This document shows, piece by piece, positions 1 through 17,408 of a DNA stretch of 17,408 bases; position 1 is the first letter of the stretch; every line of letters starts with the position of its first letter. Source of the DNA: a virus. Taxonomy: Duplodnaviria > Heunggongvirae > Uroviricota > Caudoviricetes. A program made the position numbers and the translations under genes. The notes under the pieces were generated by a model. The model worked only from the letters and a program-made list of their open reading frames with translations. It was not told the DNA's origin and did not search any database. The stretch lies in IMG/VR virus record IMGVR_UViG_2630968397_000004, one strand, 5' to 3'.

Positions 1-1080
1 ATCGCTATCAAATCGGTCAAGACGAGATAGCAGGGCAAGTAATGTACCATCGGTTTGCTTACGTGAAAGTCCTTTAGCACTACAACGGTTTTCATTACGA
101 AGAGGACAACGATAAATCCCGTTTCTTGTATCGCTAAAGCCTGTGATAATCAGAGCATGACCACATTCAGAACAACGGATAACACCTTTAAAGAGATTCA
201 CACTCAATGGTTTAGCTGAAACAGGTTTTCGACCGTAACGAGAATGTGATAGTTGTTGAACTTTGTAGAATGTTGTTTCATCTATAATTGCAGGATAATA
301 ACCAGCTATCTCCTCACAGCCTTTAGGTGTGAAGTAACCAATTACAGAACGATTCTTCAAAAGGTCTTGCACAGAAGTTTGACCAAACTTACCCGGCTTA
401 TACTGGCTCATCGACTGGTGACCTTCAGCATTAAGAGTTCTGACAATCTCCCAGATAGACTTACCCTCTAACCGTAGCTGAAAGCACCTCTTCACAGTCT
501 CCACTTTCTCAGGTATCACAGAGAAGCTTTTACGGTCATCATTAAGCTTAAGCCATGCAGGACAACGTTTAGAAACTTTGATACCAGCTTTAGCAGCCTC
601 TTTCTTGGCATCCCATGCAGCCTGTATACGCTCAGCCTTACGTAATGATTCCTCATGCGCCCTTTGCATTATCAAAATGCTTTTAATCAGGGATAACGGG
701 TCTTTAAGAGACTCACTTGTGTAATGTTCACCATCGGACAGGGTGACTACATCTACACCAGCCCTTAAGATACGACGTAATAGCTCAGAAGCAATATCAA
801 TATCCTGACGTGAGAGACGGTCTAAACTCTCGATTAGTAGTGTATCACCAGCTTTAACAAGCCCTTTCTCGATAGCGGTTAAGAAGTCACCTAAGCCACC
901 TTTCAAGTGCTTACCAGTAAACCCGCTAACGCCTAAATCACGAAAAGATAAATCTTGGTCAAGGTAGTACTCAGGATGAGCCTTAAGCCAATCAGTGACC
1001 ATCTTAGATTGTCTGCGGAGTGAGTCGCCTTTAGCTTGCTTCTCTGATGAGAAACGAATGTATGAAATGACACGTTTCAT
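1..1080 (-). CDS. large serine recombinase, N-terminal 360 codons (ORF open to window edge, 3' end outside window)
   Basis: Reverse-strand ATG at 1078-1080 preceded by GAGGTGG Shine-Dalgarno. Manual translation MKRVISYIRFSSEKQAKGDSLRRQ... carries the serine-recombinase catalytic motif (YIRFSSxxQ), has no stop through position 1, and shows a Cys-rich zinc-ribbon-like stretch (IRCSECGH...YRCPLRNENRC) typical of large serine recombinases. Absent from ORF track because it has no in-window stop. Confidence 0.8.
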   Translation of the reverse strand, partial: MKRVISYIRFSSEKQAKGDSLRRQSKMVTDWLKAHPEYYLDQDLSFRDLGVSGFTGKHLKGGLGDFLTAIEKGLVKAGDTLLIESLDRLSRQDIDIASELLRRILRAGVDVVTLSDGEHYTSESLKDPLSLIKSILIMQRAHEESLRKAERIQAAWDAKKEAAKAGIKVSKRCPAWLKLNDDRKSFSVIPEKVETVKRCFQLRLEGKSIWEIVRTLNAEGHQSMSQYKPGKFGQTSVQDLLKNRSVIGYFTPKGCEEIAGYYPAIIDETTFYKVQQLSHSRYGRKPVSAKPLSVNLFKGVIRCSECGHALIITGFSDTRNGIYRCPLRNENRCSAKGLSRKQTDGTLLALLSRLDRFDSD

Positions 1081-1142
1081 TGTTTACCACCTCAAAACTG
1101 ATACCTAGATTGTATCGCTTTAGGTAGTGTATTTAAACGTGT

Positions 1143-4100
1143 CTAATAAATAACACCCGTATATATCAGCGTATTATCCAGGGTCGTTCGGTTATAAATT
1201 TCAGCACCGTTTTTCTTCACTATCAGGCGGCATGACGAATAAATATTGTTATTCTTCCGCTCATGTTTAGCACCGCGAAACGCCACCGCGGGAATAACAA
1301 TTTGCCGATCAAACGGCTGATCGTCATAAACCCTGACGGTAATGGTCCCTGATGGCCACCTCTCCGGTGCCCGGGAGTCCCGTGGGAAAGGTTTGCCCAC
1401 TGTTTTAACGAGATCGCCTTCAATCTGGTTCGCGGACAATTTTCCCAGAACCCGACAGTTCTTATTAATCGTGACGTTGTTGAGCGTCCCGGAGTTCGCG
1501 TTCACGTTACCGCTGATATCGGCATTTTTCGCCGTCAGCCGTCCGCCAGGTGTCAGGGAAAATGCCGGAGGATTACCGCCGCTGGTAATGGTCGGAGCCG
1601 TCAGGCATTTCAGGAACACGTCGTTCATGAATATCTGATCGCCCTGACCAACAAACATCGGCTTTGTGTTGCCATTCGCAGGATTAATCATCGCAATCCT
1701 GTCTGCCGCCAGCAGCACCTGACTCTGCATTCCTGCTGGCGTATTCTCAATACCGGCACCGATACCCGCAATATAAAGGCGTCCGTCCTTCATCTGTTGC
1801 AGCTTCACAGCCCACATGCTGTTCAGGTTATTATTTGTATCAACCTGAACTTTCTGTATCTGCTGGATTGCAGCACTCTGATTTTCCAGTTTTTTATTGA
1901 CGGTTTGCGTGATTTCATTGCTGACATTCGTAATGGACGTCCTGATTTCAGTCAGGTCCGGCGCAAGCTGACCGTTATCAATCTGCGTCCACAACTCCTT
2001 GCCGAGATGCGTTTTATTGATCAACCCTTTATAAAAATTCAGATAACCTTCTGCATCATCGCTCGCCCGACCGATGGCCTCCACAAATGCCGATTTGCCA
2101 ACGGTGTTCACACTGCGAACGTAAAAATAATAATCATGGCCCGGCCTGATATTGATACTGGCGGCTATCCAGTACAGCGCCGTGCCAAGATAGCGGGCGC
2201 TGGTTTCAACCTGCCTGATATCCGCAATCCGCTTTTCCGAAAACCAGAACTCAAACTGCACCGTCGGGTCATATACAGCCAGTTTCGGGACCGCCGTTAT
2301 CTGAAAATACCCCGGTATCAGTTCAATAGTGACAGGCGCTGCCGGTGCCGCAATCCGGAACGATACCGACGCCGGATCGCCCTGCTGCCCCCGGGCATTT
2401 ACCGCCCGGACTGTCAGACTGTAATTCCCCAGCGCCAGCTGCCTGAAGCGGTATGTGGTTTCCGTCGTCCTGGCTGTGCTGACCAGCCGCTCACTGCCGT
2501 CGTCCGCTGCCACGGTCAGGCGAAGCAGGAAGCTCACACCCTTCACCACCTTCGGCGTGTCCCATCGCGCCAGCACCTGATATTCCCCGCTGTCTGCGGT
2601 GACTTCGGCGGTCAGATGCTGCACCGCTGGCGGCGTGACACCATTCACCGTGCCGCGCCGGTCACCGTCAAAGTGTGCCCCGTTATCCACGATGGCCTCT
2701 TTTTCCGGCACATGCTGCACGGCGGTGATGGCATACGTGCCGTCGTCGTTCTCACGGATACTCACGCAGCGGAACAGACGCTGGCGCAGCGTCGGCAGCT
2801 TCAGCCCCCACACGCTGTATTCTGCAACGCCGTCAGGAACCCGGCTCACTTTCACCTTCACGCCGTCGGTGACGGACTGGACCTCCACGCTGACCGGATT
2901 GCCACTTCCGTCAACCAGGCTTATCAGCGTGGTACCGGAGGACGGCAGCGTGATTTCACGGTCGAGCGTCAGCGTCCGGGTCTGGCTGTTCACCGCCAGT
3001 ACGCGACCACCGGTGCTGATACCGGCATAATCATCATCGCAGATTTCAATGACATCACCCGGTACATGGCGAAGCCCTTCTGCGCCCACGCTGAAGTCCA
3101 CGGTCTGCGTTTCCAGCAGTTCCGTTTTAATCAGCCACAGCCCGGCTCGGTGTGCCTGCCCCCGGCTGGTACAGCCAAAGGCATCCATCTTCGTGACATT
3201 ACGACCGTAACGGGCAATGGCCTGCGTATCCTCCACAAGCTCTGTCGCCGTCTCCCAGCCGTTATCTGGGTCAATCCAGTTCACCTCAACGGCATTATGG
3301 CGGTCCTTCAGGGCGCTGAAGCTGTAGCGGAACGGCGCGCCATCGTCCGGCATCACCACATTACTGCGGTTATAGGTCCACACCTTATCCGACGGTCGGT
3401 CCTGCACGAACGTCAGCATCTGTCCGTTCCATACCGGCATACAGCGCATCGCCGAGCAGAAATCACTGAGAACATCCCACGCCTTACGCTGTGTGGTCAG
3501 GTAAGAGTTACAGGTGATGCGCGGCTCCGTGCCGCCAAATCCGTCCGTCACTGACTGGTCGCAGTACTGGCCGATGACATACAGCGCCCATTTGTCCACA
3601 TCTGCCGCACCAAGACGTTTCCCCATGCCGTAGCGCGGATGAGTGAGCATGTCCCACAGACACCAGGCCATGTTGTTGCTGTATGCTGGCTTAAGCGTTC
3701 CGTCCCAGATACCGCTGTATTGCCGCGTCTGCGGGTTATAGTTCGACGGCACCTGCAGAATGCGCCCGCGAAGATGATAATTGCGACTCACCTGCTGGTT
3801 ACCGAACTGCTCTGAATCCACCTGCACGCCGACCAGCGCCGTGTTCGGGTAGCACTGTTTCACATCGATGATTTCGGTGTACGACGACCAGAGCGTTTTG
3901 TTCTGCAGCTGGTCTGTGGTGCTGTCCGGTGTCATCCTGCGCATCCGGATATTAAACGGGCGCGGCGGCAGGTTACCCACCACCACCGAGGCCAGATACT
4001 GCGAAGTGGTTTTGCCCTTAATGGTGATGTCTTTTTCCGTCACCCAGCCACCGTTACGCTGTATCTGAACCAGCAGGCGGACTTCCGACGGATTCCGGTC

Positions 4101-4484
4101 ACCCTTTGAGGTGGTTTCCACCAGTGCCTGCACACCGAAGGTCAGGCGCAGACGGTCGATGTTTGCCGACGTGATGGTCCGGGTGATCGGCGTGTCATAT
4201 TTCACTTCCGTACCCAGCACCGTCTCGGAGCCGGAGGATTCAAAACCCTCCGGCGGTGTCTGCTCCTGCTCACCTGCACGGAACACCACCGTAACACCGG
4301 AAAAGTTTGTCTTCCCCTCGCTGTCCAGGACCGGCGTACCGTTCAGCAGCACGCTTTTTAATCCATCCACCGGACCGTCAACCGGCCCTTCGCTGATGGC
4401 ATCAATCACACTCAGCAACTGCGTGGATTTCAGGTTGTCCTTCGCTTCGCGCGGGGTATGCCCCTTACTGCTGCCTTTACCCAT
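1143..4484 (-). CDS. J: lambda J-like host specificity protein / central tail fibre (1113 aa)
   Basis: ORF track 1113 aa starting [34 protein letters not shown]..., recognised as lambda gpJ over most of its length. GAGG Shine-Dalgarno 4 nt upstream of ATG. Sits downstream of I as in lambda. Confidence 0.93.
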
Positions 4485-4544: not shown

Positions 4545-5186
4545 TCAGCGACCAATCACCACAACCTGACCACCATCCCCTTCGTCTGCCGTGCTGATCT
4601 CCTGAGAAACCACACGTGACCCCACGCGCATTTCACCGTACAGAACGGGCAGAACATTGCCCTGGGCAACCATGTTATCCAGTGACGAGAAATACGTGTT
4701 CTGCTTACCGTTATCCGTTGTCTGTGTACGGGGAGTTCTGGCTTTCGGTGCCAGCATCTGTGCAACACCGCCAAGCGTCATACTGGCACCGAGAGAAAAC
4801 AGCAGATTACTCGCCATAATTCCTACCCCCGGCATCCATATAGCAACCGCCATAACAGCCGCCCCCAGCACCGCCTGAAACACACCGCCACTTTTAGCTC
4901 CCACCAGACGCGGTACTATGTGGATCACTGCACCATTTGCCAGCGGCTCATTAAGACGGGCAGACAATTCGGTTTCACCTGCATCACGCCCGGCAATGCG
5001 CACCTGATACCAGCCGTCACTCAGTTTCTGACGAAACGCCGGGAGCTGTGTGGCCAGTGCCCGGATGGCTTCAGCCCCCGTTTTCACACGAAGGTCGATG
5101 CGGCGACCAAATCGTTGTAAATCCCCGTAAAGGCAGATGCGCGCCATGCCCGGTGACGCCAGAGGGAGTGTGTGCGTCGCTGCCAT
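4545..5186 (-). CDS. I: lambda I-like tail tip assembly protein (213 aa)
   Basis: ORF track protein MAATHTLPLASPGMARICLYGDLQRFGRRIDLRVKTGAEAIRALATQLPAF... recognised as lambda gpI. Overlaps K by 103 nt as in lambda. Confidence 0.9.
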   Translation of the reverse strand: MAATHTLPLASPGMARICLYGDLQRFGRRIDLRVKTGAEAIRALATQLPAFRQKLSDGWYQVRIAGRDAGETELSARLNEPLANGAVIHIVPRLVGAKSGGVFQAVLGAAVMAVAIWMPGVGIMASNLLFSLGASMTLGGVAQMLAPKARTPRTQTTDNGKQNTYFSSLDNMVAQGNVLPVLYGEMRVGSRVVSQEISTADEGDGGQVVVIGR

Positions 5187-5827
5187 TTGTCGGTGTACCT
5201 CTCTCGTTTGCTCAGTTGTTCAGGAATATGGTGCAGCAGCCCGCCGTCACCGCAGTAAATGGCGGCATGATTCGGCACCGATGAACCAAAACAGCACAGC
5301 AGCACATCGCCCGGCTGTGCCTCTGTCAGTGCGACACGGTAAAAACCCGTCACCTCCATATTGTCAAGATAGAGATTCTGACCGTTACGCCACCAGTCAT
5401 CCCCGCGATGAAAATCCGGCATCTCAATCCCTGCCAGATGATAAGCATCCCGGAACAGCGTGTAACAGTCCGTCACCCCGTGCTCAAAGCGCCGCCCGGT
5501 GAGATGCGGCACACAGCGGAACTTGTGAATCGCCCCCCGGCAGACCAGCCACCACGGCAAATCACTCTGCACCTGCAGCCGCCGGTCAGCCTCACTCAGC
5601 CAGGGCAGACCACCGGGATGACTGTGGACCAGCGCCACAATCTCACCCTGCATTTGTGCCCGCAGCCAGTCCTCCGGAGCCATCCGGAACCGTTCCTCCG
5701 GCTCACCGGAGATATTCTCGCTGGGAAGATACCTGTCTCCCTCCGGCGTTCTTACCACGAAGCCACACGACTCCGCTGGCGCACATCGCCGGGCGTGCGC
5801 CAGAATCGCTGATTCTGTCTGTGTCAT
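5084..5827 (-). CDS. K: lambda K-like tail tip assembly protein (MPN/JAMM-like HSHP motif; 247 aa from the ATG at 5825-5827)
   Basis: Track ORF 5084..6091 starts at an upstream GTG that overlaps L and is probably over-extended. The in-frame ATG giving MTQTESAILAHARR... lies 4 nt after the L stop. A later internal ATG (5681-5683, MAPEDWL...) would give 199 aa. HSHPGG and NlpC/P60-like C-terminal region recognised. Confidence 0.85.
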   Translation of the reverse strand: MTQTESAILAHARRCAPAESCGFVVRTPEGDRYLPSENISGEPEERFRMAPEDWLRAQMQGEIVALVHSHPGGLPWLSEADRRLQVQSDLPWWLVCRGAIHKFRCVPHLTGRRFEHGVTDCYTLFRDAYHLAGIEMPDFHRGDDWWRNGQNLYLDNMEVTGFYRVALTEAQPGDVLLCCFGSSVPNHAAIYCGDGGLLHHIPEQLSKRERYTDKWQRRTHSLWRHRAWRASAFTGIYNDLVAASTFV

Positions 5828-5831
5828 GGAT

Positions 5832-6530
5832 TTACTGAGAAAGTTTATTGATGGAAAGGAAACCGCCGAAATTACCGGTATTGTTGCGCAACTCACACCC
5901 GCGCATACACTTGCTGCATTTGTCCTTCCGGATATCCGTCGTTGGTTTGTCGAACTCGTCAGCCACTGCCCTGCCCGTGTAACCACACTCATCAGAACGG
6001 TAAGTCCACATACAGGTATTCGCCAGCATGATACGCCCCGGGAAAACCGCGCCATCCGTCTCCGTTGGTGTGGCCAGCACAAAAGAGGCACTGACCGCGC
6101 TCAGTTCGCTGCACTGCTCGATGCGCCAGCGGCTGATCACCTCCTGTTCCGGATCGGCGTCGCTGTTTCCGTTGACGAAGTTCACCGCATCCAGAAAACG
6201 GGCGTAAACCTTACGCCTGACCACCGTTCCGCCGACCAGACTCTGCAGGTCTTCCGCCATCCCGGTGACCATTCCGTGCAGGTTAGAAACCGTCAGTGTC
6301 GGACGGGCAGCACTGCCCTTGCCGTTCAGTTCAAATCCCGTCCCCTGAATGGGGTATGCCTGATACTGCCGCCCCTGCCAGGTAACCGGCTCACCTTTTT
6401 CGTTCTGCTCATTACAGAAAAAATAACGTTCACCACCGACCTCTGTCAGATCGATTTCCCAGAGCACCACCTGGGCTGACTGAGTGAGGCGTGTCGTCTC
6501 ATGATGTGTTTCCTGTGGAATATCCTGCAT
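5832..6530 (-). CDS. L: lambda L-like tail tip protein (232 aa)
   Basis: ORF track protein MQDIPQETHHETTRLTQSAQVVLWEIDLTEVGGERYFFCNEQ... recognised as lambda gpL; same length and gene order as lambda. Confidence 0.9.
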   Translation of the reverse strand: MQDIPQETHHETTRLTQSAQVVLWEIDLTEVGGERYFFCNEQNEKGEPVTWQGRQYQAYPIQGTGFELNGKGSAARPTLTVSNLHGMVTGMAEDLQSLVGGTVVRRKVYARFLDAVNFVNGNSDADPEQEVISRWRIEQCSELSAVSASFVLATPTETDGAVFPGRIMLANTCMWTYRSDECGYTGRAVADEFDKPTTDIRKDKCSKCMRGCELRNNTGNFGGFLSINKLSQ

Positions 6531-6539
6531 CAGAGCCTC

Positions 6540-6869
6540 CTATGCCACGACCTGTTCAAAATCTGCCGTTATGGTTACCCACAACGCCCCCACGCTTGCC
6601 GACCATTTACGACAAACCACCCTGATCGGCTTCCAGTCATAAGGTGGCGTCCACTGAAATGCGCGGACGCCACCGTGCCGTTCCAGAAAGGCTTTTAAAA
6701 ATGGGTGTTCACCTTTACGAACACGTATCTTCACGCTGTAAGTCGACAACTGGTTATTCAGTCCCGCCGCACGACGCTGTTCATAACCATCGCCCAGCTT
6801 CACTGTCACCACTTTCGGCTCTGATACCACATTCATATCCGGGCGCACTTTCCAGTGAAACGTCTCCAT
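6540..6869 (-). CDS. M: lambda M-like tail tip protein (109 aa)
   Basis: ORF track protein METFHWKVRPDMNVVSEPKVVTVKLGDGYEQRRAAGLNNQ... recognised as lambda gpM. Start overlaps the stop of the H fragment. Confidence 0.9.
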   Translation of the reverse strand: METFHWKVRPDMNVVSEPKVVTVKLGDGYEQRRAAGLNNQLSTYSVKIRVRKGEHPFLKAFLERHGGVRAFQWTPPYDWKPIRVVCRKWSASVGALWVTITADFEQVVA

Positions 6870-7208
6870 TACCGGTATGCTCCACTTAACCGGCCACCAT
6901 CACGGGCCTGCTGTTGCATAAAGTCCGCGGCCGCTTTTTTCCCGAGGTCATAAACCACCTTCAGGGCAGCCGGACCTATCTGCCCGTTCGTGCCATCGTT
7001 ATTGATCTCAATGTTGTACTGCGGGGCAAACATCACCATGCCTGAACCACCAGTATCCGCCACACCCCCCAGCTTACCATCAGCACCGCGACGCAGTGGC
7101 AGAATGGCTTCAGGTCCCGCTTCCCCCATCACACCCGCGCCTTTTGCAAAAGCAAAAAACGTCGGACGGTTAACCACCGTGCCACTGTAGCGACTCAAAT
7201 CAGCAGAC
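6869..7208 (-). pseudogene. H: 3' fragment of lambda H-like tape measure gene, truncated by IS600 insertion
   Basis: Reading frame is open from the IS600 left end (7209) down to the stop at 6869 and encodes ...ADLSRYSGTVVNRPTFFAFAKGAGVMGEAGPEAILPLRRGADGKLGG..., a tape-measure C-terminus-like sequence. The track's leading MSVKLRLP residues are encoded by IS600 terminal sequence. Confidence 0.8.
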
Positions 7209-7690
7209 TGAGGTAGCCTGAGTTTAACGGACACTCCTTCCTGAAATAGAATGGCATCAGAAGGAGCTAATAATGAGCAGAAAAACCCAACGTTACTCTA
7301 AAGAGTTCAAAGCCGAAGCTGTCAGAACGGTTCCTGAAAATCAACTTTCGATCAGTGAAGGCGCTTCCCGATTATCTCTTCCTGAAGGCACTTTAGGACA
7401 ATGGGTTACCGCCGCCAGAAAAGGGCTCGGTACTCCTGGTTCCCGCACGGTGGCTGAACTGGAATCTGAAATTCTGCAACTGCGTAAGGCGTTAAATGAA
7501 GCTCGCCTTGAGCGAGATATATTAAAAAAAGCAACAGCGTATTTTGCACAGGAGTCGCTGAAAAATACGCGTTAATCGAACAATGGCGACAACAATTTCC
7601 CATTGAAGCGATGTGTCAGGTATTTGGTGTATCCAGGAGCGGTTATTACAACTGGGTACAGCATGAACCCTCAGACAGAAAACAAAGTGA
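7209..7690 (+). mobile_element. IS600 (IS3 family), truncated copy 1: left 482 bp only
   Basis: Starts with the same TGAGGTAGCCTGAGTTTAACGG terminus and orfA offset (64 nt) as the full-length copy at 15654-16917. Sequence stops matching after ...AAAGTGA, where a second IS600 left end begins. Confidence 0.9.
7273..7575 (+). CDS. IS600 OrfA (100 aa, helix-turn-helix transposase N-terminal part)
   Basis: ORF track; identical to orfA of copy 3. A7 slippery run (TTAAAAAAAGC) near the 3' end where the -1 frame is open. Confidence 0.9.
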   Translation: MSRKTQRYSKEFKAEAVRTVPENQLSISEGASRLSLPEGTLGQWVTAARKGLGTPGSRTVAELESEILQLRKALNEARLERDILKKATAYFAQESLKNTR

Positions 7691-7751
7691 GGTAGCCTGA
7701 GTTTAACGGACACTCCTTCCTGAAATAGAATGGCATCAGAAGGAGCTAATA

Positions 7752-8054
7752 ATGAGCAGAAAAACCCAACGTTACTCTAAAGAGTTCAAAGCCGAAGCTG
7801 TCAGAACGGTTCTTGAAAATCAACTTTCGATCAGTGAAGGCGCTTCCCGATTATCTCTTCCTGAAGGCACTTTAGGACAATGGGTTACCGCCGCCAGAAA
7901 AGGGCTCGGTACTCCTGGTTCCCGCACGGTGGCTGAACTGGAATCTGAAATTCTGCAACTGCGTAAGGCGTTAAATGAAGCTCGCCTTGAGCGAGATATA
8001 TTAAAAAAAGCAACAGCGTATTTTGCACAGGAGTCGCTGAAAAATACGCGTTAA
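7752..8054 (+). CDS. IS600 OrfA (100 aa)
   Basis: ORF track; P21L variant of the other copies. Confidence 0.9.
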   Translation: MSRKTQRYSKEFKAEAVRTVLENQLSISEGASRLSLPEGTLGQWVTAARKGLGTPGSRTVAELESEILQLRKALNEARLERDILKKATAYFAQESLKNTR

Positions 8055-8089
8055 TCGAACAATGGCGACAACAATTTCCCATTGAAGCG

Positions 8090-8729
8090 ATGTGTCAGGT
8101 ATTTGGTGTATCCAGGAGCGGTTATTACAACTGGGTACAGCATGAACCCTCAGACAGAAAACAAAGTGATGAGCGGCTAAAACTGGAGATTAAGGTGGCA
8201 CATATCCGCACTCGCGAAACATATGGAACCCGGCGGCTCCAGACGGAGCTGGCAGAGAATGGCATCATCGTTGGTCGTGACCGACTGGCACGTCTTCGTA
8301 AGGAGCTAAGGCTACGCTGTAAGCAGAAACGCAAGTTCAGAGCGACTACGAACTCGAACCACAATCTGCCAGTTGCGCCAAATCTGCTGAACCAGACGTT
8401 CGCTCCTACAGCACCAAATCAGGTCTGGGTGGCGGACCTGACGTATGTTGCCACACAGGAGGGATGGTTGTACCTCGCAGGAGCAGTCTGGTCTGAAAAC
8501 ATCAATGTCGCGTAAAGGTAACTGTTACGACAACGCTCCGATGGAAAGCTTCTGGGGAACGCTGAAAAATGAGAGCCTGAGCCACTATCGTTTTAATAAC
8601 CGGGATGAAGCCATCTCAGTAATACGGGAATACATTGAGATTTTCTACAATCGTCAGCGTCGTCACTCTCGTCTGGGGAATATCTCCCCGGCAGCCTTCA
8701 GGGAAAAATATCATCAGATGGCTGCTTAA
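8090..8729 (+). pseudogene. IS600 orfB disrupted by the 179-bp deletion (frameshifted; split into 141-aa and 94-aa track ORFs)
   Basis: Track ORFs 8090..8515 and 8445..8729 together correspond to the 272-aa OrfB of copy 3 minus residues IKDVYTCE...DYRVIQ. Confidence 0.85.
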
Positions 8730-8954: not shown

Positions 8955-9029
<75 letters not shown>

Positions 9030-9032
9030 ATA

Positions 9033-9108
<76 letters not shown>

Positions 9109-9110
9109 GC

Positions 9111-9187
9111 TGGCCCACCACCGAGGACTCGAACCTCGCACCGTCAACTTAGAAGGTTGATGCTCTATCCGGATGAGCTAGTGGTGG
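9111..9187 (-). tRNA. tRNA-Arg (anticodon UCU), 77 nt with encoded CCA
   Basis: Reverse complement CCACCACTAGCTCATCCGGATAGAGCATCAACCTTCTAAGTTGACGGTGCGAGGTTCGAGTCCTCGGTGGTGGGCCA. All four stems pair; anticodon loop CTTCTAA. Confidence 0.75.
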
Positions 9188-9188
9188 T

Positions 9189-9265
9189 TGGTGGCCCTTG
9201 CTGGACTTGAACCAGCGACCTGGCGATTATGAGTCGCTCGCTCTGACCAACTGAGCTAAAGGGCC
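9189..9265 (-). tRNA. tRNA with CAU anticodon, Ile2 (ileX/ileZ-like, lysidine) or Met, 77 nt with encoded CCA
   Basis: Reverse complement GGCCCTTTAGCTCAGTTGGTCAGAGCGAGCGACTCATAATCGCCAGGTCGCTGGTTCAAGTCCAGCAAGGGCCACCA. Close resemblance to E. coli tRNA-Ile2 (GCGACTCATAATCGC core and identical T arm). Separated from tRNA-Arg by 1 nt. Confidence 0.75.
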
Positions 9266-9454: not shown

Positions 9455-10009
9455 TCAAAAAGCAATAACTTTTTTCTCTATACCAAAAGCCATAACCATT
9501 GGTTTGTACAAAATAAATTCTGCCACCTTTAGCCAATGCTCAATGCGTCTTTCACAGGTTCTTAAACTCCATTTCGGGTGTGCATCATTCAGCAGTTCAG
9601 CCATTTTGCGTTTGGTCATCCCCCGCCCCTCATACCGTTGCCGAAGGACGCTAATCAATCCTGGATGCTCTGCCAGCACCTCACTTATGACCCGATCAAT
9701 ACATAACGCCTCTGCATCAGTACAATGCGCCAGCCAGCTCTTTTGCTTACCGTTAATCATATCCCGCAAAAAAGCCTCAAGTTCAGACTTGTTCAGACCT
9801 GCTTTTTTCATCCTCCGGAGCGCCTCGTTAATTGCCGTTTTTGTCAGCTTTTTAGAGGTCAACATCAGGTTAAACATATTCCCCGTCTTACCGCCACCAA
9901 TATACGACCAGCGCCCCCACATACGTAGTTTTCCCTGAATCCAGACACTTTCCAGCGTGGTGAGACGAAGGTGTTCTCCGCTTTTTCCTGTATTCGTTGG
10001 GTAAATCAT
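9455..10009 (-). CDS. putative late-gene antiterminator Q-like protein (184 aa)
   Basis: In-frame ATG (MIYPTNTGKSGEHLRLTTLESVWIQGKLRMWGRWSYIGGG...) with AGGAGG Shine-Dalgarno 8 nt upstream. Start overlaps the YbcO-like stop (ATGA). Position is immediately upstream of the tR'-like terminator and phage tRNAs, as for Q in Stx-type lambdoid phages. Track ORF start at 10129 is over-extended. Family call is from positional logic and partial sequence recollection. Confidence 0.6.
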   Translation of the reverse strand: MIYPTNTGKSGEHLRLTTLESVWIQGKLRMWGRWSYIGGGKTGNMFNLMLTSKKLTKTAINEALRRMKKAGLNKSELEAFLRDMINGKQKSWLAHCTDAEALCIDRVISEVLAEHPGLISVLRQRYEGRGMTKRKMAELLNDAHPKWSLRTCERRIEHWLKVAEFILYKPMVMAFGIEKKVIAF

Positions 10010-10296
10010 AAATATCCCTCCTTTCTCCAGATTTCTTGTGTGCGAAAAACACCTTCTGCATGCATCAGGCGTAATTCTTCTTTGGTGTAATCGCTGGTTT
10101 TTACCCGCCCGTCGATTAAATCGTGGCACGAGCTACAGGCAATCGCTGCCTGCATATCGTGTGGCTTTATCGCTGTTCCGCACGTTCCCGCCAGTCGGTA
10201 ATGCGCCAGCACAGACGTTTCCGGATCGTGATTGCAGTAGCCAGGAATTCTGACGGTGCACATCTGCCCCCGCGCCGCTTTACGTAAATCCACCAT
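10006..10296 (-). CDS. YbcO-like (DUF1364) Cys-rich nin-region protein, putative nuclease (96 aa)
   Basis: ORF track protein MVDLRKAARGQMCTVRIPGYCNHDPETSVLAHYRLAGTCGTAIKPHDMQAAIACSSCHDLIDGR... resembles E. coli DLP12 YbcO as recalled. Confidence 0.7.
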   Translation of the reverse strand: MVDLRKAARGQMCTVRIPGYCNHDPETSVLAHYRLAGTCGTAIKPHDMQAAIACSSCHDLIDGRVKTSDYTKEELRLMHAEGVFRTQEIWRKEGYL

Positions 10297-11179: not shown

Positions 11180-11285
11180 GATGCCTCCAGGTTTATAAGT
11201 ACAAACGGTTATATCAACATAGAGACAAAAGGTGATGCTGCCAACTTACTGATTTAGTGTATGATCGTGTTTTTGAGGTGCTCCA

Positions 11286-11561
11286 GTGGCTTCTGTTTCT
11301 ATCAGCTGTCCCTCCTGTTCAGCTACTGACGGGGTGGTGCGTAACGGCAAAAGCACTGCCGGACATCAGCGCTATCTCTGCTCTCACTGCCGTAAAACAT
11401 GGCAACTGCAGTTCACTTACACCGCTTCCCAACCCGGTACGCACCAGAAAATCATTGATATGGCCATGAATGGCGTTGGATGCCGGGCAACTGCACGCAT
11501 TATGGGCGTTGGCCTCAACACGATTTTACGTCACTTAAAAAACTCAGGCCGCAGTCGGTAA
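11286..11561 (+). CDS. insA: IS1 InsA (91 aa)
   Basis: ORF track protein [43 protein letters not shown]... A6C frameshift motif TTAAAAAACTC at 11535-11545. Confidence 0.95.
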
Positions 11562-11983
11562 CCTCGCGCATACAGCCGGGCAGTGACGTCATCGTCTGCG
11601 CGGAAATGGACGAACAGTGGGGCTATGTCGGGGCTAAATCGCGCCAGCGCTGGCTGTTTTACGCGTATGACAGTCTCCGGAAGACGGTTGTTGCGCACGT
11701 ATTCGGTGAACGCACTATGGCGACGCTGGGGCGTCTTATGAGCCTGCTGTCACCCTTTGACGTGGTGATATGGATGACGGATGGCTGGCCGCTGTATGAA
11801 TCCCGCCTGAAGGGAAAGCTGCACGTAATCAGCAAGCGATATACGCAGCGAATTGAGCGGCATAACCTGAATCTGAGGCAGCACCTGGCACGGCTGGGAC
11901 GGAAGTCGCTGTCGTTCTCAAAATCGGTGGAGCTGCATGACAAAGTCATCGGGCATTATCTGAACATAAAACACTATCAATAA
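11480..11983 (+). CDS. insB: IS1 InsB reading frame (expressed as InsAB' transposase by -1 frameshift)
   Basis: ORF track 167 aa; -1 frame relative to insA. Confidence 0.9.
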
Positions 11984-12090: not shown

Positions 12091-12246
12091 TTACTCTCTA
12101 GATTCGTAGTCTACGAAAACAGCGACCTCCGTCTGGCCGATTCGGATTCGTACCTCGCAGAGGTCTTTCCTCGTTACCAGTGCCGTCACAATGACGGTTA
12201 AACAGATGACGATCAGGGCGATTAACATCGCCTTTTGCTGCTTCAT
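12091..12246 (-). CDS. hok: Hok-family type I toxin (51 aa)
   Basis: MKQQKAMLIALIVICLTVIVTALVTRKDLCEVRIRIGQTEVAVFVDYESRE, recognised as Hok/Gef family (closest to HokD/RelF as recalled). SD AAGGAGAAG upstream of ATG. Track ORF 12091..12303 is the in-frame upstream (mok-like) extension. Confidence 0.85.
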   Translation of the reverse strand: MKQQKAMLIALIVICLTVIVTALVTRKDLCEVRIRIGQTEVAVFVDYESRE

Positions 12247-12420
12247 AGCCTGCTTCTCCTTGCCTTTCGGCACGTAAGAGGCTAACCTACATTTGTGAGA
12301 CATAGATTGGGCCTCAGATTAATGTTAAGCGTCTTGCAGGACGCGTAATGTTAACTGGGGCTTTTCTCTGTCTGCCTTACAGTGACATACCCGAGGCAGA
12401 CAGCCTCAAGCACCCGCAGC
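12247..12420 (-). promoter_or_regulatory. hok mRNA leader with mok-like upstream start and conserved hok/sok leader elements
   Basis: Minus-strand sequence GCTTGAGGCTGTCTGCCTC...GGCAGACAGAGAAAAGCCCC...AGGCCCAATCTATGTCTCAC...TAGCCTCTTAC...GCAAGGAGAAGCAGGCTATGAAG parallels the plasmid R1 hok/sok leader as recalled. Confidence 0.6.
12296..12350 (+). ncRNA. putative Sok-like antisense RNA, antitoxin of the hok locus
   Basis: Plus-strand promoter-like -35 TTGCCT (12260-12265), 17-bp spacer, -10 TAACCT (12283-12288), positioned like the R1 sok promoter. Transcript would be complementary to the mok-like start region. Hairpin GCGTC-ttgcag-GACGC at 12329-12344. Inferred, not proven. Confidence 0.35.
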
Positions 12421-14746: not shown

Positions 14747-14801
14747 GGTGATGCTGCCAACTTACTGATTTAGTGTATGATGGTGTTTTTGAGGTGCTCC
14801 A

Positions 14802-15077
14802 GTGGCTTCTGTTTCTATCAGCTGTCCCTCCTGTTCAGCTACTGACGGGGTGGTGCGTAACGGCAAAAGCACTGCCGGACATCAGCGCTATCTCTGCTCT
14901 CACTGCCGTAAAACATGGCAACTGCAGTTCACTTACACCGCTTCTCAACCCGGTACGCACCAGAAAATCATTGATATGGCCATGAATGGCGTTGGATGCC
15001 GGGCAACAGCACGCATTATGGGCGTTGGCCTCAACACGATTTTACGTCACTTAAAAAACTCAGGCCGCAGTCGGTAA
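14802..15077 (+). CDS. insA: IS1 InsA (91 aa)
   Basis: ORF track; A6C frameshift motif present. Confidence 0.95.
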
Positions 15078-15499
15078 CCTCGCGCATACAGCCGGGCAGT
15101 GACGTCATCGTCTGCGCGGAAATGGACGAACAGTGGGGCTATGTCGGGGCTAAATCGCGCCAGCGCTGGCTGTTTTACGCGTATGACAGTCTCCGGAAGA
15201 CGGTTGTTGCGCACGTATTCGGTGAACGCACTATGGCGACGCTGGGGCGTCTTATGAGCCTGCTGTCACCCTTTGACGTGGTGATATGGATGACGGATGG
15301 CTGGCCGCTGTATGAATCCCGCCTGAAGGGAAAGCTGCACGTAATCAGCAAGCGATATACGCAGCGAATTGAGCGGCATAACCTGAATCTGAGGCAGCAC
15401 CTGGCACGGCTGGGACGGAAGTCGCTGTCGTTCTCAAAATCGGTGGAGCTGCATGACAAAGTCATCGGGCATTATCTGAACATAAAACACTATCAATAA
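14996..15499 (+). CDS. insB: IS1 InsB reading frame
   Basis: ORF track. Confidence 0.9.
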
Positions 15500-15717: not shown

Positions 15718-16020
15718 ATGAGCAGAAAAACCCAACGTTACTCTAAAGAGTTCAAAGCCGAAGCTGTCAGAACGGTTCCTGAAAATCAACTTTCGATCAG
15801 TGAAGGCGCTTCCCGATTATCTCTTCCTGAAGGCACTTTAGGACAATGGGTTACCGCCGCCAGAAAAGGGCTCGGTACTCCTGGTTCCCGCACGGTGGCT
15901 GAACTGGAATCTGAAATTCTGCAACTGCGTAAGGCGTTAAATGAAGCTCGCCTTGAGCGAGATATATTAAAAAAAGCAACAGCGTATTTTGCACAGGAGT
16001 CGCTGAAAAATACGCGTTAA
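15718..16020 (+). CDS. IS600 OrfA (100 aa)
   Basis: ORF track. Confidence 0.95.
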   Translation: MSRKTQRYSKEFKAEAVRTVPENQLSISEGASRLSLPEGTLGQWVTAARKGLGTPGSRTVAELESEILQLRKALNEARLERDILKKATAYFAQESLKNTR

Positions 16021-16055
16021 TCGAACAATGGCGACAACAATTTCCCATTGAAGCG

Positions 16056-16874
16056 ATGTGTCAGGTATTTGGTGTATCCAGGAGCGGTTATTACAACTGG
16101 GTACAGCATGAACCCTCAGACAGAAAACAAAGTGATGAGCGGCTAAAACTGGAGATTAAGGTGGCACATATCCGCACTCGCGAAACATATGGAACCCGGC
16201 GGCTCCAGACGGAGCTGGCAGAGAATGGCATCATCGTTGGTCGTGACCGACTGGCACGTCTTCGTAAGGAGCTAAGGCTACGCTGTAAGCAGAAACGCAA
16301 GTTCAGAGCGACTACGAACTCGAACCACAATCTGCCAGTTGCGCCAAATCTGCTGAACCAGACGTTCGCTCCTACAGCACCAAATCAGGTCTGGGTGGCG
16401 GACCTGACGTATGTTGCCACACAGGAGGGATGGTTGTACCTCGCTGGCATCAAAGATGTTTATACGTGCGAAATTGTCGGCTACGCCATGGGAGAGCGCA
16501 TGACAAAAGAGCTGACAGGTAAAGCCCTGTTTATGGCGCTCAGGAGCCAGCGCCCACCTGCCGGGCTAATCCACCACTCTGATCGAGGTTCACAGTACTG
16601 CGCATACGATTACCGGGTCATACAGGAGCAGTCTGGTCTGAAAACATCAATGTCGCGTAAAGGTAACTGTTACGACAACGCTCCGATGGAAAGCTTCTGG
16701 GGAACGCTGAAAAATGAGAGCCTGAGCCACTATCGTTTTAATAACCGGGATGAAGCCATCTCAGTAATACGGGAATACATTGAGATTTTCTACAATCGTC
16801 AGCGTCGTCACTCTCGTCTGGGGAATATCTCCCCGGCAGCCTTCAGGGAAAAATATCATCAGATGGCTGCTTAA
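16056..16874 (+). CDS. IS600 OrfB (DDE transposase catalytic part; produced as OrfAB fusion by -1 frameshift)
   Basis: ORF track 272 aa. The -1 frame is open upstream back to the A7 slippery run at the end of orfA. Confidence 0.95.
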   Translation: MCQVFGVSRSGYYNWVQHEPSDRKQSDERLKLEIKVAHIRTRETYGTRRLQTELAENGIIVGRDRLARLRKELRLRCKQKRKFRATTNSNHNLPVAPNLLNQTFAPTAPNQVWVADLTYVATQEGWLYLAGIKDVYTCEIVGYAMGERMTKELTGKALFMALRSQRPPAGLIHHSDRGSQYCAYDYRVIQEQSGLKTSMSRKGNCYDNAPMESFWGTLKNESLSHYRFNNRDEAISVIREYIEIFYNRQRRHSRLGNISPAAFREKYHQMAA

Positions 16875-16917
16875 AAAAAGAACAAATGGTAGTGTCCGCT
16901 ATTGCCAGTACACCTCA

Positions 16918-17408
16918 TTGTGAATGTCAGAAGAAACCTGACGATACTTGATATGTTCGGTCCCCCAAAAACAAATGCCGGGATCCGGACGGTAACATTA
17001 CTGCAGCCGGCTCTTGAAGCACTGAAGGAGCAATACAAACTGACCGGGCATCATCGCAAAAGCGAAATCACTTTTTATCATCGGGAGTACGGCAGAACTG
17101 AAAAGCAAAAACTGCATTTTGTTTTCATGCCCAGGGTGTGTAACGAAAAACAGAAACCTTATTACTCGGTAAGCAGTTTGGGTGCAAGATGGAATGCAGC
17201 AGTAAAACGTGCTGGTATTCGCCGCCGTAATCCGTACCATACGCGACATACTTTTGCCTGCTGGCTGTTGACGGCAGGAGCGAACCCGGCATTTATAGCC
17301 AGCCAGATGGGGCATGAAACTGCGCAAATGGTGTATGAAATTTACGGTATGTGGATTGATGACATGAACGACGAACAGATAGCCATGTTGAATGCGCGGT
17401 TATCGTAG
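16918..17408 (+). pseudogene. 3' fragment of a phage tyrosine integrase (catalytic C-terminal domain), truncated at its 5' side by IS600
   Basis: Frame is open from the IS600 right end to TAG at 17406-17408. ...NAGIRTVTLLQ...YHTRHTFACWLLTAGANPAFIASQMGHETAQMVYEIYGMW shows R...HxxR...Y tyrosine-recombinase elements. Track ORF start (TTG 16902) lies inside IS600. No upstream coding continuation left of the IS. Confidence 0.75.

Follow-up and report, generated by a model that had tools for sequence, protein, structure and literature searches.

The large serine recombinase (LSR) gene that follows the tail gene J in the analysed stretch of DNA (17,408 nt, hereafter the window) is very probably the integrase of an independent element of ~11.5 kb, which became inserted in a prophage, at a secondary attB within J. 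The usual attachment site of the element is inside the chromosomal gene yecE. In a lineage of Shigella sonnei, the excised circular element would have recombined its attP with an attB-like sequence that lies 47 codons short of the J terminus, in a conservative exchange at the central dinucleotide AA. The LSR gene stands last in front of attP and is directed away from it, so that integration would have placed it 62 bp downstream of J and in the same direction. Two reciprocal junctions were found (the far one in the sister contig L054), together with the intact attP in other contigs, the empty site in uninterrupted J, and the domain architecture of a large serine recombinase. LSR presumably catalysed the insertion, and it may still be active. 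The insertion is an ordinary kind of event and a new example of known processes, while the element itself looks previously undescribed. The features of the junction region are as follows.

1-1080, minus strand: large serine recombinase, 5′ two-thirds, codons 1-360 of 507 (Pfam, translation).
1081-1148, minus strand: element-derived P arm with the ribosome-binding site, a promoter-like site and the left half of attP (junction comparison, promoter scan).
1102-1126: 6-bp inverted repeat, TACCTA (1102-1107) and TAGGTA (1121-1126), in the P arm just outside the attP half-site.
1126-1148: left half of attP, i.e. the distal motif AGTGTATTTA (1126-1135) followed by 13 nt (1136-1148).
1149-1150: central AA dinucleotide, the crossover point (alignment of attB, attP, the yecE junctions, the window and uninterrupted J).
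1151-1172: J-derived half of the secondary attB, TAACACCCGTATATATCAGCGT, which resembles the yecE attB half AATCACCCGATTAACGCCGCGC.
1143-4484, minus strand: truncated J (tail tip / host specificity), 1113 aa (ORF, Pfam, comparison with intact J).

The LSR gene starts with an ATG at 1080-1078 on the minus strand, and its ORF leaves the window at the left edge after 360 codons; the translation opens with MKRVISYIRFSSEKQ. The Pfam search identified a Resolvase domain (PF00239, residues 4-164, E 2.6e-19), a Recombinase domain after this catalytic domain (PF07508, residues 190-277, E 3.9e-15), and a zinc ribbon (Zn_ribbon_recom, PF13408, residues 296-350, E 2.5e-07), the last with a score of 31.4 bits against a cut-off of 25.3. 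The four Cys residues of the zinc ribbon can be read in the translation (CSEC ... CPLRNENRC), as can the motif Y7-x-R9-x-S11 (YIRFS), and from the Y-x-R-x-S motif of serine recombinases we take Ser11 to be the nucleophile. In every full-length copy adjoining an identical J, the protein has 507 aa, compared with a size criterion for LSRs of more than about 400 aa, well above the small resolvases and invertases. The coiled-coil and C-terminal parts fall outside the window, to the left. The C-terminal domain of the A118 integrase contains a coiled coil. Residues 240-454 of a full-length LSR homologue align weakly with this domain (PDB 4KIS, E 8e-05). Judged by its sequence, the protein is thus a predicted serine integrase.

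A ribosome-binding site, GAGGTGG, is located at plus-strand positions 1087-1093, 6 nt ahead of the ATG, and the ATG lies 62 nt past the stop of the J ORF, both genes being on the minus strand. A preceding sequence-only reading of the window had described a large serine recombinase of at least 360 aa with a catalytic Ser in YIRFS, a Cys-rich zinc-ribbon-like region and a GAGGTGG ribosome-binding site, starting 62 bp downstream of J on the same strand. All of these elements were recovered, and the Resolvase, Recombinase and zinc-ribbon models that it had proposed as a check all match. A Pin/Gin/Hin-type invertase of about 190 aa with only a catalytic domain and a C-terminal HTH, which the same reading had named as the opposing case, is excluded by the length of 507 aa and by the additional recombinase and zinc-ribbon domains. 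Exactly the 1113-aa J followed by a full-length LSR was found in 17 contigs. The source contig of the window terminates inside the LSR gene exactly at codon 360, and an independent E. coli entry (P0383) is likewise a partial protein of 360 aa. The end at codon 360 is possibly a repeat boundary or an IS insertion, and the LSR copy of the window may not be intact.

Positions 1-1159 of the window were compared with complete E. coli genomes. At least 258 genomes match at 94-96% identity at a recombinase-yecE junction, and the features under the E. coli matches, among the matches listed, are a “recombinase family protein” and a truncated DUF72 gene, i.e. yecE. The J-LSR junction was spanned in none of the complete E. 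coli genomes searched. In yecE, the 507-aa LSR is the last gene of an insert of about 11.4-11.5 kb that splits yecE into two halves. The genes of the element encode a Dam methylase, a replication-initiator-like protein, several small proteins, a tape-measure protein, a “Dit-like/baseplate” protein, and LSR, and no lambdoid genes stand alongside LSR in the yecE copies. The contexts of the representatives of the recombinase and tape-measure clusters were only yecE or wrbA, and the deposited phage collection contains no phage with LSR at high identity. A related S. sonnei element (L025:4843-14727), located between the rut genes and wrbA, has the same order of Dam, tape-measure and Dit-like genes and a different serine recombinase of 547 aa. 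This relative looks like an integrase swap that gave a different attachment site. Some variants carry an additional recombinase of 183-191 aa with Resolvase and HTH domains, of the Pin/Hin type (L054:1578-2147; also L004, L020, and L024); it sits near the element end opposite LSR and is a gene separate from LSR.

The attB and both hybrid sites were defined by aligning yecE of K-12 with the two junctions, and attP was reconstructed from these. The reconstructed attP, TAGGTAGTGTATTTAAACGTGTCTAATA-AA-AATCATCAAGGTCTAAATACACTATGAG, was found intact in three independent contigs (L027, L029, and L030), suggesting that they stem from excised or unintegrated copies of the element. L029 (11,048 bp) has a terminal overlap of 28 bp, as expected for a circular assembly. 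The attP is a perfect dyad of about 48-50 bp, i.e. AGTGTATTTA, 13 nt, AA, 13 nt, and TAAATACACT. The half-site in the P arm of the window is identical to the left half of the intact attP in these three contigs, and the P arm as a whole is 99% identical to the recombinase-proximal junction of the E. coli yecE insertions.

The window junction, GTCTAATA-AA-TAACACCCGT, is the left half of attP joined to J, and uninterrupted J reads GGCATATC-AA-TAACACCCGT. At this junction, attP and the J target have nothing in common but the dinucleotide AA, on which the dyad of attP is exactly centred. The reciprocal junction, GGCATATC-AA-AATCATCAAGGTC, was found in the sister contig L054 (18,725 bp), which contains an identical 1113-aa J; written along the contig in window orientation, this far junction is GGCATATC-AA-AATCATCAAGGTCTAAATACAC, followed by the element. 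The same AA is present in attB, in attP, in both yecE junctions and in both J junctions, the arrangement predicted for a conservative attP x attB exchange at the central dinucleotide that yields hybrid attL and attR sites. The weak 6-bp inverted repeat that the sequence-only reading had pointed out in the spacer is present and is broken in other variants (TAGATG in L001 and L054); it carries little weight because it is not conserved among the variants of the element.

The J site and the yecE attB are identical at 24 of 46 positions, a score that ~1 in 10,000 background positions equals. This modest similarity leaves the choice of target unexplained by sequence alone, and sequence is a weak predictor of it. 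The pentanucleotide ACCCG is present at the same offset from the core in the half-sites retained beside LSR at the yecE and J targets, and a third target has it there as well. The latter lies inside a related LSR gene in two metagenome contigs (L036:1817, and L041, reverse strand, 8106), where the far end of an element copy is joined at AA, GTTTGACC-AA-ACTTACCCGG. The equivalent in the window is 385-386, and the window LSR is uninterrupted there. The third-target junction means that the LSR gene itself contains a secondary target. Exact-pattern scans for both junction types gave no match in the IMG/VR viral contigs, and an exact-pattern scan of the GTDB species representatives gave no match either. 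One element locus ends 8 nt short of the far junction. Taken together, a symmetric attP, the yecE attB and two secondary targets with ACCCG at a fixed offset form a natural site set for one LSR, and such sets help to assess how specific serine integrases are as tools for genome engineering.

The consequences for J are visible at both junctions. Residues 1-1112 of the window J are native, the final Tyr codon and the TAG stop are contributed by the inserted element, and the receptor-binding domain lacks its last 47 residues. J has 1159 aa in S. sonnei genomes that are free of the insertion; in phage PhiR47_1, it has 1131 aa and extends 144 nt past the end of the homology with the window. The order in L054, in window orientation, is start of stf, lom, a 55-aa ORF, far junction, element, near junction, J, I, K, L, and M. 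The 55-aa ORF is the C-terminal remnant of J and matches the final third of the receptor-binding domain of J. Removal of 11,486 bp plus one AA from L054 yields a J of 1159 aa, the C-terminus of which is colinear with that of PhiR47_1 J.

The J remnant, lom, and stf are thus located 11.5 kb further left, as read in L054, and because J is truncated and the tail genes resume only there, the tail operon does not naturally end at the window junction. The closeness of J and LSR is an insertion scar rather than operon design. Several earlier proposals can be revised on this basis. LSR had been placed at the 3′ end of the tail operon, which does not hold for a broken J (1113 versus 1159 aa) with its end, lom, and stf beyond the element. 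It had also been read as the integrase of a second element bordering on the prophage; the independent element is borne out, but it was inserted within J, and the J remnant, lom, and stf lie on its far side. The reservation that LSR might belong to an unrelated island essentially proved to be right, as LSR is part of an 11,486-bp insert (L054) that usually resides in yecE. For annotation, a unit of “J plus serine integrase” is a chimera in which the window J is a truncated, pseudogene-like ORF, and tools for the prediction of prophage boundaries would fuse two unrelated elements at the J-LSR junction.

The interrupted prophage occupies the remainder of the window, with the following features.

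4545-7234, minus strand: remaining tail genes I, K, L, and M, and a 121-aa ORF upstream of M (gene calls, Pfam on the same DNA in L009).
7273-8729, 11257-11983, 14773-15499, and 15718-16874: IS copies, i.e. two IS1 and three full or partial copies of the IS3 family.
8955-9265, minus strand: four tRNA genes (Gly-TCC, Thr-TGT, Arg-TCT, and Met-CAT), just downstream of the Q antiterminator gene.
9455-10129: Q antiterminator gene.
12091-12303, minus strand: ORF of 70 aa for a toxin of the Hok/Gef family, in the early region of the prophage, adjoining an IS1 copy.
16902-17408, plus strand: tyrosine integrase fragment of the host lambdoid prophage (PF00589, E 1.1e-13).

The host is a defective (dead) lambdoid prophage at the Rac site that is riddled with IS copies. 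The names given to members of the J protein cluster point to Shigella sonnei as the organism. These stand in place of the lysis, head and most tail genes, everything upstream of the 121-aa ORF, which has no Pfam family, is replaced, and two tandem copies of an IS3-family orfA are found at 7273-7575 and 7752-8054. In complete S. sonnei genomes, ttcA, dbpA, and zntB lie beyond the tyrosine integrase, which identifies the position as the Rac site of K-12. The fragment of a tyrosine integrase that had been noted at the right end of the window was confirmed by its domain match. As this remnant of the prophage's own integrase is retained beside ttcA, the earlier proposal that LSR is a replacement integration module is not supported.

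The J site appears to have been used more than once. Eight loci have 0-1 mismatch across 3,300 bp of J, while on the element side the same eight loci have 58-124 mismatches per 1,140 bp, and the first differences appear 23-200 bp from the core. This sharp boundary of divergence shows that at least six distinct variants of the element are present in one J site; the tape-measure proteins of the J-site variants are 40-100% identical. In the view that we favour, the different variants arrived by separate integration events at the same AA. A single ancestral insertion into J, the interior of which was later replaced by homologous recombination with incoming related elements to give six variants, is rather unlikely. 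It agrees with the identical junction sequence in all loci and with the mosaic nature of the elements, for which the range of tape-measure identities (40-100%) indicates that recombination among them is common, but several variants differ from positions only 23-86 bp off the crossover, which leaves very little homology for an exchange, and the attP circles make excision and re-integration available. Such replacement would alter the history of the LSR feature, not its identity. For Shigella genomics, the independent integrations that we favour would mean that a diverse and apparently mobile element has landed repeatedly at a single site of a dead prophage.

The tandem arrangement of J and LSR had also led to the proposal that the recombinase is co-expressed with the late genes. 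LSR would then be tied to the tail operon in function: transcripts from the late promoter would read through into it, and prophage induction would thereby set the time of excision or expression. The two genes are indeed on the same strand with a spacing of 62 bp, no terminator-like structure was found between J and LSR, and LSR is co-directional with the interrupted host gene in yecE as well. However, IS copies have taken the place of the head, lysis and most tail genes between Q and M, and a late transcript is therefore unlikely to reach J. The P arm has its own promoter-like site on the minus strand (TTTAAA-17 nt-TACAAT, −35 at 1137-1132, −10 at 1114-1109), which in the promoter scan is no better than shuffled sequence would give. 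The same orientation of LSR in yecE indicates that it follows from the polarity of the att sites, which fully explains the arrangement. Coupling of LSR to late transcription is thus unsupported and, in our estimate, improbable, and the proposed co-expression with an operon destroyed by IS copies is not upheld. LSR may rather be expressed from the promoter-like site of the P arm and not from the phage late promoter.

Even less probable is an origin of the junction by a large inversion or translocation between a yecE-resident element and the prophage at the Rac site. The genomes of S. sonnei are heavily rearranged and IS-rich, and in K-12 about 0.5 Mb separate yecE from the Rac site, but the far end of the element is followed by the lost 3′ part of J and not by yecE (L054), both junctions are exact at the same AA, and neither junction has an IS. 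The least credible alternative is that LSR is the lambdoid prophage's own serine-integrase module, which replaces or supplements the tyrosine integrase beside an attP after J: the order J, short spacer, integrase would be expected around attP in a lambdoid genome, and the window does have an attP half-site directly after J, but this is the left half only and the right half is 11.5 kb away, J is truncated with its remnant, lom, and stf after the element, the same LSR with the same neighbours is found in yecE without any lambdoid genes, and at ttcA the prophage retains a tyrosine integrase of its own. In L054, LSR lies within the 11,486-bp insert that has its own junctions in J, and the end that belongs to the prophage is marked by the tyrosine integrase beside ttcA. 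The reciprocal junction in L054 effectively rules out an integrase owned by the prophage as well as a large rearrangement.

The gene content of the independent element leads to a tentative view of its lifestyle. The tape-measure gene and the next (“Dit-like”) gene have homologues, in conserved synteny, in virulent Felixounavirus phages, at the following positions.

L028:8051-11115 and L054:8001-11080 (left of the window): tape-measure/Dit-like pair of the element.
L059:4767-7777: the corresponding pair in Felixounavirus.

The tape-measure proteins of the element and of Felixounavirus are 28-35% identical overall and 55% identical over the first 76 residues, and the downstream Dit-like proteins are 68-82% identical. 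No other element genes common to Felixounavirus were found beyond this pair. In database searches, the element tape-measure protein matched more than 5,000 proteins per search (P0121-P0360 among them), nearly all of which are singleton clusters at 91-98% identity. The types of tape-measure proteins are as little as 40-50% identical to one another, and their sources are E. coli, Shigella, and Salmonella.

The homology of the tape-measure/Dit-like pair suggests that the element interacts with lytic Felixounaviruses and has a satellite-like lifestyle. It contains an integrase and replication functions of its own, and scans of all element genes with PHROG, Pfam, and PADLOC revealed no capsid, terminase or lysis genes, i.e. 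the gene content of a satellite. PADLOC found no known defence systems in the element. Induction by a helper phage and packaging into its particles are hinted at, at most indirectly, by the helper-like tail genes and the contigs with attP. We consider it possible, though doubtful, that the element represents a new family of satellite-like or anti-phage islands of Enterobacteria that act against virulent myoviruses of the FelixO1 type (Felixounavirus). This reading would include the LSR-mediated integration in yecE, the element's own initiator, the relative at wrbA and the repeated landing in J of S. sonnei, and the hypervariable copy of a helper tape-measure gene together with the next gene would perhaps serve to hijack or poison tail assembly. 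Literature searches yielded no description of the element, nor of FelixO1 satellites. If the link to FelixO1 is functional, the element would be a widespread counterpart, in E. coli, Salmonella, and Shigella, of satellites of virulent phages.

The PLE of Vibrio cholerae is a satellite of the virulent myovirus ICP1 and is compact, integrated by an LSR, equipped with its own replication initiator, and devoid of capsid and terminase genes. The element resembles PLE as a compact LSR island with its own initiator and without capsid or terminase genes, and its putative link to a virulent myovirus is the tape-measure/Dit-like pair. The two have no sequence relationship. To our knowledge, helper-like tail genes are not a feature of PLE, whereas the element carries such genes.

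With the large serine integrases (A118/LI integrase, phiC31, Bxb1, and TP901-1), LSR shares the resolvase-type catalytic domain, the recombinase domain and the four-Cys zinc-ribbon domain, and its sites share with theirs an attP of about 50 bp with a dyad, a shorter attB and conservative exchange at a non-palindromic central dinucleotide. The similarity to the A118 integrase, the only solved relative by sequence, is marginal (E 8e-05). Unlike the phages that encode serine integrases, the carrier of LSR is not a complete phage but an 11.5-kb element without capsid or terminase genes. The closest proteins in the deposited phage collection, with full-length alignment, are the YbcK-type LSRs of lambdoid coliphages (Escherichia phages 4A7, Perceval, and PhiR47_2), yet the identity is only about 36%, and the YbcK-type genes are located inside lambdoid genomes of 47-50 kb.

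Insertion into a resident defective prophage has a precedent in Stx phages, which target yecE with a tyrosine integrase and integrate into a resident defective prophage at a 21-bp att sequence shared with a yecE-derived 100-bp patch on that prophage (Nakamura et al. 2021, PMC8112680). Both cases have in common that an element of the yecE site is found in a defective lambdoid prophage, at a second att-like sequence, with varied occupants among strains. They differ in that here the integrase is a serine integrase, the crossover shares only 2 bp, and the insertion went into coding sequence of J that has no yecE ancestry. PhiBT1 serine-integrase vectors in Nocardia are reported to integrate at pseudo-attB sites (PMC5937489). 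Like the J site, pseudo-attB sites would be only partly attB-like, with exchange at the normal core. Compared with those laboratory vector integrations, the insertion into J is natural and recurrent.
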